DNA of 64,000 nt. It comes from a virus (lineage: Duplodnaviria; Heunggongvirae; Uroviricota; Caudoviricetes). Of this stretch, positions 5,797-8,932 are shown piece by piece (within the stretch, counting starts at the first letter, position 1; every line of letters begins with the position of its first letter). The DNA is taken from the IMG/VR virus record IMGVR_UViG_2778260994_000001. One strand, 5' to 3'. A program made the translations under genes and the position numbers. The notes beneath the pieces were generated by a model. That model was not told the DNA's origin. It did no database searches and saw nothing but the letters and a program-made list of their open reading frames with translations.

Positions 5797-6369
5797 ATGC
5801 CTAATCGCATTCCTCTCGATCCTGTATTGCCCAAAAATTTTGACTGCACTCCTAACGAGAAACGCTCTAAAGCTCAGCTGGACGCCTGGTGGGACCATCC
5901 CTATGGGGTTACAGAACATGACGGGAAAATTGTTGTTTATTGTCTGAATGGTGGCGCGTGGGACCGTCCATCCGTGCTTGGTTTGGCAAATAACTATGAT
6001 GAAGCCTGTGAACTTGCCGAAAGACAGCAGGCTAGATGGGTGAAAACACGGTCACAGCCGACATTCATGTTTTCAAAAGAACCGCCATTTATACTGGCGA
6101 GGATGCCGCAGCGACCGGATCATCAACAAGAAATTGTTGCTGAATTTTCCTCAAGGGATGAGATGAATCTCTTCTCATTAAAGCAGGAAGAAAGGGAGCG
6201 CGTCGAAGTGCCTCCAACTCTCGACCACAACCGGATGAACCTGGCCCAACTCGCCTGGTACAGCAAAGAATTAGAGATGTCTATTGCCCGACTTGAAAAC
6301 GAAAAAGCCGCTATCCAAGCCCAGCATGAAGCTGTCATTGCCAGGATACGAGAAGTTCAAAACGGTTAA
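5797..6369 (+). CDS. Hypothetical protein (190 aa), divergent from humD across the LexA box
   Basis: ATG with AGGAA RBS; C-terminal coiled-coil-like segment; occupies the position of P1 lxr as recalled. Confidence 0.6.
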   Translation: MPNRIPLDPVLPKNFDCTPNEKRSKAQLDAWWDHPYGVTEHDGKIVVYCLNGGAWDRPSVLGLANNYDEACELAERQQARWVKTRSQPTFMFSKEPPFILARMPQRPDHQQEIVAEFSSRDEMNLFSLKQEERERVEVPPTLDHNRMNLAQLAWYSKELEMSIARLENEKAAIQAQHEAVIARIREVQNG

Positions 6370-6375
6370 CTACCG

Positions 6376-6639
6376 CTATTTCTTTACGGCATCATCTTTC
6401 TGATATGCCGGATCGCTCCCTTTTGGCAACTGGAGGCTTAACTGCCGGTAGTGCCGTAGCCGTTCCATGAAATAGGTGCGCAGATTCTCTGGTTGCTCGC
6501 GGGCTACCTGTTCAGCTATGACAGGTATGTTCAATCGCTCTTTGTACGCCACACCGCTGGCAGCCAGATCAACGTTAACCTTATCCCGTTCTTCCTGACT
6601 TTTAGCTGCAATATTCCAATCGTACATATCAAATCCCAT
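6376..6639 (-). CDS. hot: Homolog of DNA polymerase III theta subunit (HolE)
   Basis: [43 protein letters not shown] aligns with E. coli theta as recalled. Confidence 0.8.
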
Positions 6640-7076
6640 CCAGAATAATTGAGTAACGACTATTATTTAACCAGCAAAGTAACTTTTAATTTTTTTTCTT
6701 CTCCCATTGATTTTTGTGCACAGCTTATCTGCCTTGCCGTGCGCAGAATCAACTTTTTTCTTCCTGATTTATCCACAAAGTTATGCACTTGCAAGAGGGC
6801 CATTTTCTAAATATTGTGATGTTTCACAAATGAAATGAATTTTGATTAATGAAGATAAGGAGAAAATTTGAGATGCAATCATGACGTTAATAGATAGGGT
6901 CTGCATTACAGACCCCACCCGCATCAAGGAATTAGCCGTTCCCTGATGTTGTTCCGAAAACATGTGCCGTAAGCTCACGTTAACGACTTTCTTTCACCGA
7001 ATCCAACTATATAAGGGTTGGGTTTCTACGTCAACGTGAGCAAGTGCTCCTTTACATTTGACAAGGAACCACCTTA

Positions 7077-7214
7077 ATGACTGCTTTTTTTCAGTTCCTG
7101 AGTGCATTTTTAGATGCGCCTGTTATTAGCCAGATTCTGGCTATTATCCTCATCATCGTTTTGATTTTGCTTTTAAGGTCAGTAAAAAATGGAATTATGC
7201 ACTGGCTTACTTAA
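7077..7214 (+). CDS. Small hydrophobic peptide (45 aa), candidate membrane peptide
   Basis: MTAFFQFLSAFLDAPVISQILAIILIIVLILLLRSVKNGIMHWLT; AGGAA 8 nt upstream; below ORF-track cutoff. Confidence 0.35.
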   Translation: MTAFFQFLSAFLDAPVISQILAIILIIVLILLLRSVKNGIMHWLT

Positions 7215-7289
7215 TGTTTCAGTGAAACATTAAAATCTCCTTGATGTGGAAACAATCATTTTCTGTATGTGCTGGTGGGTACCTGTAGT

Positions 7290-7640
7290 TCAGCTTTCGT
7301 TGGCATTTAACTTCGTCTTTGCTTTCTCCACCAGCAACTTCCAGATGCCTATTTCATTAGCAGCCGCCTTGATGGCGGCATAAAAAGCATCTTGCTGATC
7401 GTAACGCTGAATCTGTTTTTTCAGTTTTGCCTCCACCAATTTAATTTCATTACGTGCTTTCTGAAGCCGCCGCGCCGCCCGGTTACGTCTGTTCTTGTAT
7501 AGCGCGTTAATCTCTGACAATTGCTTTAATTTACCAGCCTGACTGCGGATTATCGCCTCTCTGACTTCTGCCGTGCGTCTCATCTGATCTCTTAAGAGTT
7601 CACCGTTTTCGATAATTCTTTCAAGGTGTTTGATGTGCAA
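7290..7640 (-). CDS. Hypothetical coiled-coil protein (116 aa)
   Basis: Charged heptad-like sequence; last gene of a co-directional cluster. Confidence 0.55.
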   Translation of the reverse strand: MHIKHLERIIENGELLRDQMRRTAEVREAIIRSQAGKLKQLSEINALYKNRRNRAARRLQKARNEIKLVEAKLKKQIQRYDQQDAFYAAIKAAANEIGIWKLLVEKAKTKLNANES

Positions 7641-7643
7641 CTC

Positions 7644-8576
7644 TCATACTTCACCCTCGCTTGTATCGCCAGCATCCACCAACGGCAATAAAGCCATGGC
7701 CATCTTATGAACCAACAGAGCATCGATAATGCCAAGCGTATGCCCCGGCTTAATGTTTAATGCCGCCTCAAGGTGACACCTTTCTAGGTCACTTTTCTCG
7801 GCTTGTTTATGATGATCTGGCGTAATAACGTCGCCCAAAACACGGCTAATTCTTTCTCGTAATTGCTGGGTGCCAGCACACTTGACCGCTGTATCGTGGA
7901 GGCGGTTAACCAGTTCGCGATAAACATGCGGCTTAATTCGGATACGTTCACCGGGGACGCCCTTTCCTTTCGCTGGCACCGAACTATCCGGAATGTCCGG
8001 ATAGTTGCCAGCCTCGTAAGCTACCCGCAGCCAGTGCATGAATGTTTCAGTGGACACACAACCACAGTCCACATCGATTTTCCCGCGTTGCTGTTCCAGC
8101 CATTGCCCAAAATCCAACCTGTAAGTCTTACTTTCAAGTTCATCACCATTGAACTCGACTTTCTGCGACGCTATGAGAGCTGATTCGTATTGTTCGCGAG
8201 TGACAACTGACTGGTATTCATCGCTATCAAGGTCACCAATTGGAAGCTCAATCTCACAACAAAAATTGCGCCCAAAGAAAGTGTCTTTTTTGTGGTCTGA
8301 GCCAAAAGCAAAAGTCGCGCATGGTGCCATTAAATTGACACTGGGTAGGTAACAATAACTCATTCCATCAGGCCACCCGCCGCACTTAGGCAGCTCCTTC
8401 ACTAACAAGTCGATAAGCTTCATTTTTTTATCATCTTTGCAAGCCGCCAAAGCCATTTGGGCAAGTGCCAATACTTCATCTGCCGTATATCCAGCACCGT
8501 GACCATACATTTCGATACGGGAAATAGTCTCTGATATACGCTCTTCAGTGATTCTGGTCATTTCTTTTTGCGCCAT
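7644..8576 (-). CDS. Hypothetical protein (310 aa)
   Basis: ORF tightly packed with neighbours; several Cys pairs; no recognisable catalytic motif. Confidence 0.6.
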   Translation of the reverse strand: MAQKEMTRITEERISETISRIEMYGHGAGYTADEVLALAQMALAACKDDKKMKLIDLLVKELPKCGGWPDGMSYCYLPSVNLMAPCATFAFGSDHKKDTFFGRNFCCEIELPIGDLDSDEYQSVVTREQYESALIASQKVEFNGDELESKTYRLDFGQWLEQQRGKIDVDCGCVSTETFMHWLRVAYEAGNYPDIPDSSVPAKGKGVPGERIRIKPHVYRELVNRLHDTAVKCAGTQQLRERISRVLGDVITPDHHKQAEKSDLERCHLEAALNIKPGHTLGIIDALLVHKMAMALLPLVDAGDTSEGEV

Positions 8577-8932
8577 TTCTTTTCACATTCCTTAGTCCAT
8601 TTTTCAATGTTCATTTTGGCAATATCAGTCATTCCATCACCTAAGAAATACTTTCTCCGGTATGTCTTGCACTTAAAACACACTACAACAGCCACCAGCC
8701 AGAAAATAAAAGGCCATACAGCAATACCAACGACAGCCGCGATAAAGCCCAATATCCATAAATGAAGCTCTCCAACTTCTGTTTCCGGCAATATTCTTAA
8801 AGAATTAAACAGCAGGCTGAACGAATGGTCGTATGCATTGGCAGTATAAGACATGCAATCCATATAATTAAAGTCATAGCCTGCGGCTGCCGCCCATAAT
8901 GGGCGGTCAAGAAAATGTTTTAGTGTCATCAT
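8558..8932 (-). CDS. Hypothetical membrane protein (124 aa), Lys-rich C-terminus
   Basis: Central hydrophobic stretch LWILGFIAAVVGIAVWPFIFWLVAVVVCF. Confidence 0.55.
   Translation of the reverse strand: MMTLKHFLDRPLWAAAAGYDFNYMDCMSYTANAYDHSFSLLFNSLRILPETEVGELHLWILGFIAAVVGIAVWPFIFWLVAVVVCFKCKTYRRKYFLGDGMTDIAKMNIEKWTKECEKKWRKKK

Follow-up and report, generated by a model that had tools for sequence, protein, structure and literature searches.

We analyzed a stretch of 64,000 nucleotides (nt) of a Caudoviricetes virus (IMG/VR record IMGVR_UViG_2778260994_000001), here called the window, with a focus on a plus-strand open reading frame (ORF) of 45 codons at positions 7077 to 7214. The window is bacteriophage P1 (NC_005856), to which the 661 bases around this ORF are 100% identical; P1 is reverse-complemented in this part (P1 position = 93206 minus window position), so that the ORF corresponds to P1 85992-86129 on the complement strand. 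The ORF and the sequence upstream of it may form a new type I toxin-antitoxin-like module of sense and antisense RNAs in P1-like phage-plasmids, a reading that we favor with slightly less than even confidence. The locus has the anatomy of such a system, since it combines (i) a weak, stress-linked promoter, (ii) a structured leader, (iii) a peptide with a single predicted transmembrane (TM) helix and a basic tail, (iv) a stronger promoter of opposite direction, and (v) a location on a low-copy plasmid prophage.

A conserved ORF that probably encodes a hydrophobic peptide

An earlier note on this DNA, made from the sequence alone, had reported an ORF for a peptide of 45 amino acids (aa) with one long hydrophobic helix, a basic tail, and a ribosome binding site, and this description holds. 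The ORF starts with ATG at 7077 and ends with TAA at 7212-7214, and its translation is exactly the peptide quoted there. The maximal Kyte-Doolittle (KD) score over 19 residues, 3.08, is the highest among the 273 ATG-initiated ORFs of at least 40 aa in the six frames of the window, and in 3000 shuffles of the surrounding 650-bp stretch, no ORF of 45 aa or more reached a comparable hydrophobicity. The ORFs of the window that come next in hydropathy lie on the minus strand at 29900-30136 (78 aa, KD score of 2.82) and 8558-8932 (124 aa, KD score of 2.64). AlphaFold2 predicted helices at residues 2-12 and 15-44, separated by a break at D13-A14 before P15, with a mean predicted local distance difference test (pLDDT) score of 88 and with values of 86-95 for the helix 15-44. 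The basic C-terminal tail is formed by R34, K37, and H42 in P1 and by K34, R39, and R42 in the divergent clade defined below. The ORF is preceded by a Shine-Dalgarno (SD) sequence (Table 1), the AGGA core of which ends 9 nt before the ATG or, as a result of a 1-nt deletion in the divergent clade, 8 nt before it. This purine core was retained, even though P1 and the divergent clade share only 66-69% identity over the 33 nt around it.

All copies of the ORF and of the sequence around it come from P1-like phage-plasmids of the genera Escherichia, Salmonella, and Shigella. Matches numbered 229 among PLSDB plasmids, 13 among phage records, 54 among IMG/VR contigs, and 20 among metagenome contigs, and 216 of the 5426 complete E. 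coli genomes carried the ORF. These more than 250 copies comprise 18 unique module variants, which fall into three clades: P1-type (including a JL22-like subclade), P7-type (with the replacements T2N and V16I), and a divergent clade with 56-60% aa identity, which was represented by L006 in the fold comparisons. More remote copies were absent from the plasmids, phages, and E. coli genomes searched by tblastn and sensitive blastn, which returned only these three clades, and nothing more remote emerged from two motif scans of viral contigs, a motif scan of metagenomes, and back-translated and motif scans of one genome per species. At the protein level, an exhaustive phmmer search of 1.84 billion representatives retrieved, beyond the known clades, nothing but alleles of this peptide with truncations or frameshifts, as did a word-indexed protein search.

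Several alleles are disrupted. In the P1/JL22-type copy L084 (metagenome contig OGIW01000442.1), the end of an insertion sequence, IS1 (GGTAATGACTCCAACTTATTGATAG...), is inserted at nt ~115 of the ORF, i.e., at about codon 39, and the same IS1-derived tail, VMTPTY, is found in the divergent-clade allele P0003. These IS1 insertions into the A-rich 3' end of the ORF in two clades are independent. Of the further alleles, P0001 is frameshifted in an A6 run, and P0002 and P0004 are truncated. Disrupted alleles are common among toxin genes.

Between P1 and the divergent clade, 31 of the 138 nt of the ORF differ (22.5%), with conservation of the start, the stop, and all 45 codons. There is not a single indel over these 138 nt, whereas the adjacent segments of 33 nt and 75 nt both carry indels. 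The replacements are conservative (I/V/L/F, R/K, and D/N), the ratio of nonsynonymous to synonymous substitution rates (dN/dS; Nei-Gojobori) is 0.45, and every within-clade change of the ORF in the JL22-type subclade and in L049 is synonymous. In neutral simulations that used the same numbers of transitions and transversions as observed, the frame remained intact in 16% of the trials, and it remained intact with replacements at least as conservative as the real ones in 2.4% (joint P of 0.024). Taken together, the conserved frame, start, stop, and SD sequence and the purifying selection, a moderate signal derived from about one deep comparison, argue that the plus-strand ORF is probably a gene.

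An invariant promoter opposes the leader of the predicted mRNA

A cis-encoded antisense RNA, which the earlier note had proposed to look for, has a plausible source at this locus. A sigma-70-like promoter on the minus strand, situated within the most conserved block of the leader (93-97% identity), matches the consensus at 10 of 12 positions, compared with 8 of 12 for the sense promoter. It is identical in P1 and L006, and neither of its hexamers varies among the 18 unique module variants. The transcript that we infer from it would be about 110 nt long, with both ends predicted, and complementary to the leader of the peptide mRNA.

This predicted RNA folds into a 13-nt single-stranded 5' tail followed by three hairpins, with a minimum free energy (MFE) of -43.2 kcal/mol and z scores of -5.55 in P1 and -4.13 in L006. 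The last hairpin is GC-rich (6892-6920) and is followed by UAUCUAUU, an arrangement that is terminator-like but noncanonical and that was not called by the terminator scan. The mRNA target of the antisense 5' tail is a predicted single-stranded loop, with probabilities of being unpaired of 0.58-0.86. Several stems of the antisense RNA hold G.U pairs, which correspond to A.C mismatches on the other strand. Substitutions that preserve pairing comprise one compensatory pair at 6900/6912 (U-A to C-G) and two changes from G.U to A-U; one G.U-to-A-U change is independent and occurred in the JL22-type subclade. Because there are so few clades, covariation is thin.

Leader of the peptide mRNA and origin of its promoter

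An nrdA-like promoter points into the leader and the ORF, and an mRNA start at ~6822 and a leader of ~255 nt are therefore predicted. An 'nrdA-like promoter' and a DnaA box are already annotated on this strand in GenBank M95666. Each of the 5426 E. coli genomes has, in its ypaB-nrdA intergenic region, a sequence with 91% identity to the 69 bp at 6739-6807. The promoter fragment (~85 bp homologous) is oriented as in nrdA, and the homology runs through the -10 hexamer and stops right after it. The sense -35 hexamer is invariant across the clades, and the -10 hexamer reads TACTGT or TACCGT in the divergent clade. Upstream of the DnaA boxes, the E. coli sequence is matched more closely by the P7-type copy than by the P1-type copy, and about 100 other places in E. 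coli plasmids match the promoter fragment without containing the peptide module. A possible NrdR box in the P1 copy was visible by eye only as a half-site, and we make no claim of it.

The leader contains the best-conserved part of the module. Identity between P1 and the divergent clade amounts to 89% at 6851-7043 and to 93-97% at 6961-7020, whereas the ORF reaches 77.5% and the flanks about 70%. The consensus fold of the leader comprises several hairpins, and the z scores of the full mRNA fold are -2.5 in P1 and -3.6 in L006. The SD-like 22-mer GATAAGGAGAAAATTTGAGATG is identical in all retrieved copies from 54 viral contigs and 20 metagenome contigs, which cover the three clades, and this element may serve as a standby or loading site. 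It leads into a mini-ORF, the stop codon of which overlaps an upstream ORF (uORF) of 21 codons. The frame of this uORF is kept in P1 and the divergent clade; we nevertheless rejected it as a conserved peptide, since six of its seven changed codons are nonsynonymous, two of them forming the compensatory stem pair, and since the changes track the RNA stems. The uORF is probably constrained as RNA and not as protein.

In the MFE folds of both clades, AAGGAG in the SD-like element of the leader pairs with UCUCCUU, located 25 nt past the stop codon of the 45-codon ORF. In L006, the extreme 5' end forms a 16-bp helix with the 3' untranslated region (UTR) at -30.9 kcal/mol. A 5'-3' duplex as stable as the respective native one was reached by 2/1000 shuffles for L006, 81/1000 for the P7 type, and 197/1000 for P1. 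The SD core of the 45-codon ORF is mostly paired in all clades (probability of being unpaired, 0.19-0.27), with a different partner in each of them.

The leader also holds two near-palindromes of 10 bp, ACGTTAACGT (6977-6986) and ACGTCAACGT (7030-7039), which are 55 bp apart. The second overlaps the antisense -35 hexamer, and the pair forms a 12/13-bp stem in the plus-strand RNA. The two palindromes could equally be paired operator sites for some regulator.

Comparison with known type I systems

Membrane-acting type I toxins are hydrophobic peptides of less than 60 aa with one predicted alpha-helical TM domain; C-terminal cationic residues are common, although not universal, and the antitoxin is an antisense RNA that pairs with the toxin mRNA (PMC8309996). 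In this class, cis elements of the mRNA sequester the ribosome binding site, the ectopically produced peptide is toxic, and the RNA neutralizes it (PMC8309996). The peptide of the P1 locus has the corresponding size, hydrophobicity, and single helix (45 aa, KD score of 3.08, helix 15-44) as well as the cationic C-terminal tail.

By analogy, the closest systems are hok/sok and ldr/rdl, which have an RNA that is cis-antisense to the leader, and tisB/istR-1 or zorO/orzO, which show pairing far upstream and a stress promoter. (i) The hok/sok family (parB of plasmid R1, flm, srnB, and pnd) is likewise plasmid-borne and encodes a single-TM peptide of ~50 aa on a long structured mRNA (~400-480 nt; predicted in P1) with upstream translation signals. 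Its antisense RNA is also encoded in cis, is fully complementary, starts at a leader-internal promoter that is the stronger of the two, and exposes a single-stranded 5' tail to an accessible target, all of which is predicted for P1. Pairing between the 5' and 3' ends is predicted in the divergent clade and is not significant in P1 itself. In contrast to hok/sok, the P1 module has no sequence similarity to this family (no Hok_Gef match in Pfam and no Sok match in Rfam) and no mok-like frame overlapping the toxin start, since 130 nt separate the ATG at 7077 from the ends of the only conserved upstream ORFs (6873-6884 and 6881-6946). Its antisense RNA would target a region 78-190 nt ahead of the AUG and not a coupled ribosome binding site, and its peptide has a short basic cytoplasmic tail, whereas Hok has a periplasmic Cys-containing domain. 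(ii) The systems tisB/istR-1, dinQ/agrB, zorO/orzO, and shoB/ohsC of the E. coli chromosome likewise combine a small hydrophobic toxin and a long 5' UTR with a divergent antitoxin RNA that originates within or upstream of this UTR and pairs far upstream of the SD sequence, in a standby or processing region. Their toxin promoter is also tied to DNA stress, through LexA there and through the DnaA boxes of the nrdA promoter in P1. They differ in a short, trans-like complementarity, compared with the full overlap of ~110 nt in P1, in the lack of sequence similarity, and in that the implied P1 regulator is DnaA (possibly NrdR) and not LexA. (iii) ldrD/rdlD (E. coli LDR) shares with the P1 module a TM peptide that measures 35-45 aa and carries cationic residues at its C-terminal end, and a cis-antisense RNA that is opposite to the 5' leader and not to the coding region. 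However, the P1 module has no Ldr_toxin match in Pfam and no rdlD match in Rfam, and it is a single-copy locus on a phage-plasmid, whereas ldrD/rdlD resides in chromosomal long direct repeats. (iv) Two systems of P1 itself are also related in concept. P1 already uses an antisense RNA regulator, c4, at icd-ant (immI), but c4 and its targets derive from one transcript, from which c4 is processed, and what it controls is an antirepressor rather than a membrane peptide. The existing addiction module phd-doc, located 2 kb to the left in the window, differs as a type II system that is based on protein-protein interaction.

Proposed mechanism and alternative explanations

In the proposed mechanism, the weak DnaA-box promoter, captured from or shared with host nrdA, would drive an mRNA of ~480 nt (~6822-7300). 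The stronger, invariant promoter inside the leader would fire in the opposite direction and give rise to the three-hairpin antisense RNA of ~110 nt, the sequence of which is the perfect complement of the mRNA leader at nt ~70-180. Contact would be made between the single-stranded 5' tail of the antisense RNA and the accessible loop of the mRNA, and the duplex thus formed would prevent the leader (upstream SD element and uORF) from being used and/or trigger cleavage, thereby switching off peptide synthesis. Because the distance from the AUG back to the pairing site is 78-190 nt, and because blocking the antisense target left the accessibility of the ORF's own SD sequence unchanged in a thermodynamic model, we infer duplex-directed cleavage or a block of the upstream SD or uORF. 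This step is the least secure of the model. Decay of the antisense RNA following plasmid loss, or overinduction of the mRNA under replication stress via DnaA, would release the peptide, which would insert into the inner membrane with its N terminus outside and its basic C terminus inside and arrest or kill the cell. In a more far-reaching version, the peptide would found a new toxin family in which the captured nrdA promoter reports the status of replication initiation or of the deoxynucleoside triphosphates, the cis-antisense RNA restrains the toxin, and loss of the plasmid prophage or replication stress leads to membrane depolarization, upfM, upfN, and upfO being misannotations; we think it unlikely that all of this applies.

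A number of observations weigh against the type I reading. (i) The differences in the ORF are distributed over the codon positions as 11/8/12, without an excess at third positions, and the coding signal is therefore only moderate; in addition, the comparison comprises only three clades. (ii) Substitutions in the antisense RNA are not significantly enriched at unpaired positions (Fisher p = 0.26), and with this value and a single compensatory pair, we dropped covariation as support. (iii) Since the antisense terminator is noncanonical, the leftward transcript may read on towards hot. (iv) A hok-like fold-back is significant in the divergent clade alone and not in the P7 type or P1. A conserved element that sequesters the SD sequence was rejected because the pairing partner differs in each clade, and the unchanged SD accessibility mentioned above points in the same direction. 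(v) Family searches provided no link to known toxins. With the P1 and divergent peptides, Pfam and NCBIfam returned only noise at E <= 10, with no significant match to the known type I toxin families (Hok_Gef, Ldr, TisB, Ibs, Fst, ShoB, and others). A PHROG scan of the peptides gave no family and no holin, and PADLOC gave no match for the P1 peptide and only 10 bits (E = 0.11) for the divergent form. Rfam, run on both strands of 6300-7700 at E <= 10, produced no relevant match (Sok, RdlD, Sib, IstR, OhsC, or OrzO). By sequence, the module thus belongs to no known toxin or small RNA family. (vi) In the library of papers searched, the literature on upfM/N/O, on P1 transcriptomics, on type I systems in P1, and on WP_000123562 contained no mention of this ORF or of a small RNA or type I system at the locus. 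Of the roles suggested by the earlier note, the type I toxin has genuine, though indirect, support from the invariant antisense promoter, the structured predicted RNA, and the TM peptide, and the coding signal is moderate (dN/dS of 0.45; joint P of ~0.024); the peptide may also be a membrane regulator, another role named in that note. The region has been found dispensable for lytic growth by CRISPR interference and deletion surveys, with upfM lying outside the set tested (PMC10695390), and this dispensability neither supports nor refutes a type I system.

Two alternatives keep part of these data and appear improbable to a similar degree. The opposing promoter might simply be a lysogenic promoter for leftward genes (towards hot), any antisense effect being incidental, and the ORF, expressed from the DnaA-regulated nrdA-like promoter, might encode a real but nontoxic small membrane protein (a modulator of host membrane proteins or an exclusion or replication-linked factor). 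The conservation of the ORF and its SD sequence fits this explanation equally well, hot lies downstream of the leftward promoter in two of the three clades, no canonical terminator ends the antisense RNA, and the neighboring genes hot, lxr, and humD are replication or SOS related. However, hot has its own mapped late promoter directly upstream, the P7-type clade retains the module without hot, and a simple promoter leaves unexplained why the initial ~110 nt of the leftward transcript are so extremely conserved and stable. Alternatively, the ORF might be untranslated, the conserved elements acting at the RNA or DNA level and the T-rich 3' segment being open and hydrophobic by chance. The absence of indels over 138 nt next to indel-bearing segments, the retention of the start, stop, and SD sequence, the conservative replacements with their joint P of 0.024, the synonymous within-clade changes in two subclades, and the failure of all 3000 shuffles of the region to give such an ORF are difficult to reconcile with this view. 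It would account for the better conservation of the leader (89%) than of the ORF (77.5%), which is barely above the neutral flanks, and it is consistent with the probability of 0.16 that the frame is intact by chance, the flat codon-position differences, the tendency of T-rich DNA (41% T) to give hydrophobic codons, and the lack of a call for the ORF by the Prokaryotic Genome Annotation Pipeline (PGAP) in P7-type and divergent plasmids.

We regard it as very unlikely that the locus is a DNA-level element, i.e., a site of DnaA titration, an auxiliary origin, or a set of operators of some regulator, in which the ORF is incidental. The presence of two DnaA boxes followed by an AT-rich segment, which is longer still in the divergent clade, and the palindromes ACGTTAACGT and ACGTCAACGT, which flank and overlap the antisense promoter, would fit such an element; yet the homology to the nrdA promoter fully accounts for the DnaA boxes, the palindromes also make the 12/13-bp stem in the plus-strand RNA, and retention of the ORF would be left unexplained. 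The known origins of P1 lie elsewhere, which also counts against this explanation. A holin-like or lysis-timing peptide, also raised in the earlier note, is scarcely credible. The single TM helix with a charged C terminus would fit such a peptide, but the plus strand lacks an Lpa late promoter, the sole late promoter here (LPhot) faces the other way, no endolysin or other lysis genes are adjacent, the peptide matches no holin PHROG, and the region is nonessential for lytic growth (PMC10695390).

Annotation and boundaries of the region

The P1 reference record contains no plus-strand gene in this region and lists the opposite-strand ORFs upfM, upfN, and upfO, of unassigned function, together with predicted promoters. 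The earlier note had called the 45-codon ORF unannotated, which is correct for this record only, since in P1-like plasmids PGAP calls exactly this ORF (hypothetical protein WP_000123562.1) and the annotation of phage JL22 includes it as gp107; PGAP leaves it uncalled in P7-type and divergent-clade plasmids. Similarly, the region is indeed AT-rich, with a GC content of 37.5% at 6640-7289 compared with 47.3% in the whole window, but its description as intergenic disagrees with the reference, which places the upf genes there. In the divergent clade, upfM, upfN, and upfO all carry in-frame stops or frameshifts, whereas the control gene hot is intact, and the annotated opposite-strand ORFs are therefore probably spurious. 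The sequence beneath them probably corresponds to the antisense promoter and RNA and to the nrdA-like promoter. All features are compiled in Table 1.

TABLE 1 Features of the region around the 45-codon ORF (window coordinates)
Feature	Position	Strand	Details
nrdA-like promoter	6739..6817	+	Homology to the E. coli nrdA promoter
DnaA boxes	6769-6777; 6781-6789	+	TTATCCACA; TTATGCACT; inside the nrdA-like promoter
Sense promoter	6789-6794; 6812-6817	+	-35 TTGCAA; 17-nt spacer; -10 TATTGT; predicted start ~6822
Predicted 5' leader (~255 nt)	6822..7076	+	Core 6851-7043 is the best-conserved part of the module
SD-like element and mini-ORF	6854..6884	+	GATAAGGAGAAAATTTGAGATG (6854-6875); strong, invariant
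Mini-ORF	6873-6884	+	ATG CAA TCA TGA (MQS-stop) in P1; ATG TAA (M-stop) in the divergent clade
21-codon uORF	6881..6946	+	Overlap with the mini-ORF stop at AUGA; inside the antisense target
Sigma-70-like antisense promoter	7034->7006	-	TTGACG 7034-7029; 17 nt; TATAGT 7011-7006; predicted 'PupfN' in the P1 reference
Predicted antisense RNA (~110 nt)	6886..6999	-	Both ends predicted; start ~6999
SD sequence of the 45-codon ORF	7063..7068	+	AAGGAA in P1; GAGGA in the divergent clade
45-codon ORF	7077..7214	+	Encodes MTAFFQFLSAFLDAPVISQILAIILIIVLILLLRSVKNGIMHWLT; 45 codons in all three clades
3' untranslated part	7215..7285	+	Holds anti-SD-like TCTCCTT 7236-7242; right boundary from the alignment
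upfM	6994-7107	-	P1 reference; overlaps 7077-7107 of the 45-codon ORF
upfN	6781-6978	-	P1 reference; further left than upfM
upfO	6663-6803	-	P1 reference; further left than upfM

As judged from alignments, the module is bounded by recombination breakpoints. At its left edge, the P7-type clade lacks hot, and homology begins near the DnaA boxes; at its right edge, the divergent clade has a type I restriction gene in place of pmgV, and homology ends at ~7285. The right edge also contains GCTGGTG, the 5' arm of a terminator-like stem (window 7272-7282). In the divergent clade (L006 1685-1725), its partner follows directly, and the two make a good hairpin, to which a U-rich tail is attached. In P1, the complementary partner, of 9 bp, is found 45 nt off (7327-7337), within the 3' end of pmgV.

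A sibling P1-like plasmid (L065; NZ_JBXRYT010000003.1, 1500-2100) retains the DnaA boxes and the -35 hexamer, which are followed by a different cassette. The latter comprises a strong terminator at ~1640-1670, repeated AATCGTGCCG motifs, and a hydrophobic ORF of 31 aa, MRPIVLNLLFKIVPPMFAIIEAIIEYVNQRP (1958-2053), that has a terminator of its own. This might be a further cassette for a small peptide, occupying the slot of the P1 module; a check of this slot for a known type I system gave no Rfam or Pfam match.

Implications for P1-like phage-plasmids

Few phages have been used and studied as much as P1, and P1-like phage-plasmids, which are widespread in E. coli and Salmonella, carry resistance genes. 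If the type I reading is true, P1 would have, beside phd-doc, a second module for maintenance (addiction) or stress, this one controlled by RNA and with an unusual input, a DnaA-box promoter copied from nrdA. The annotation of a 650-bp stretch (upfM, upfN, and upfO) would then need to be replaced by one small protein gene and one antisense RNA, and the peptide would add a toxin family that is beyond the reach of homology searches.

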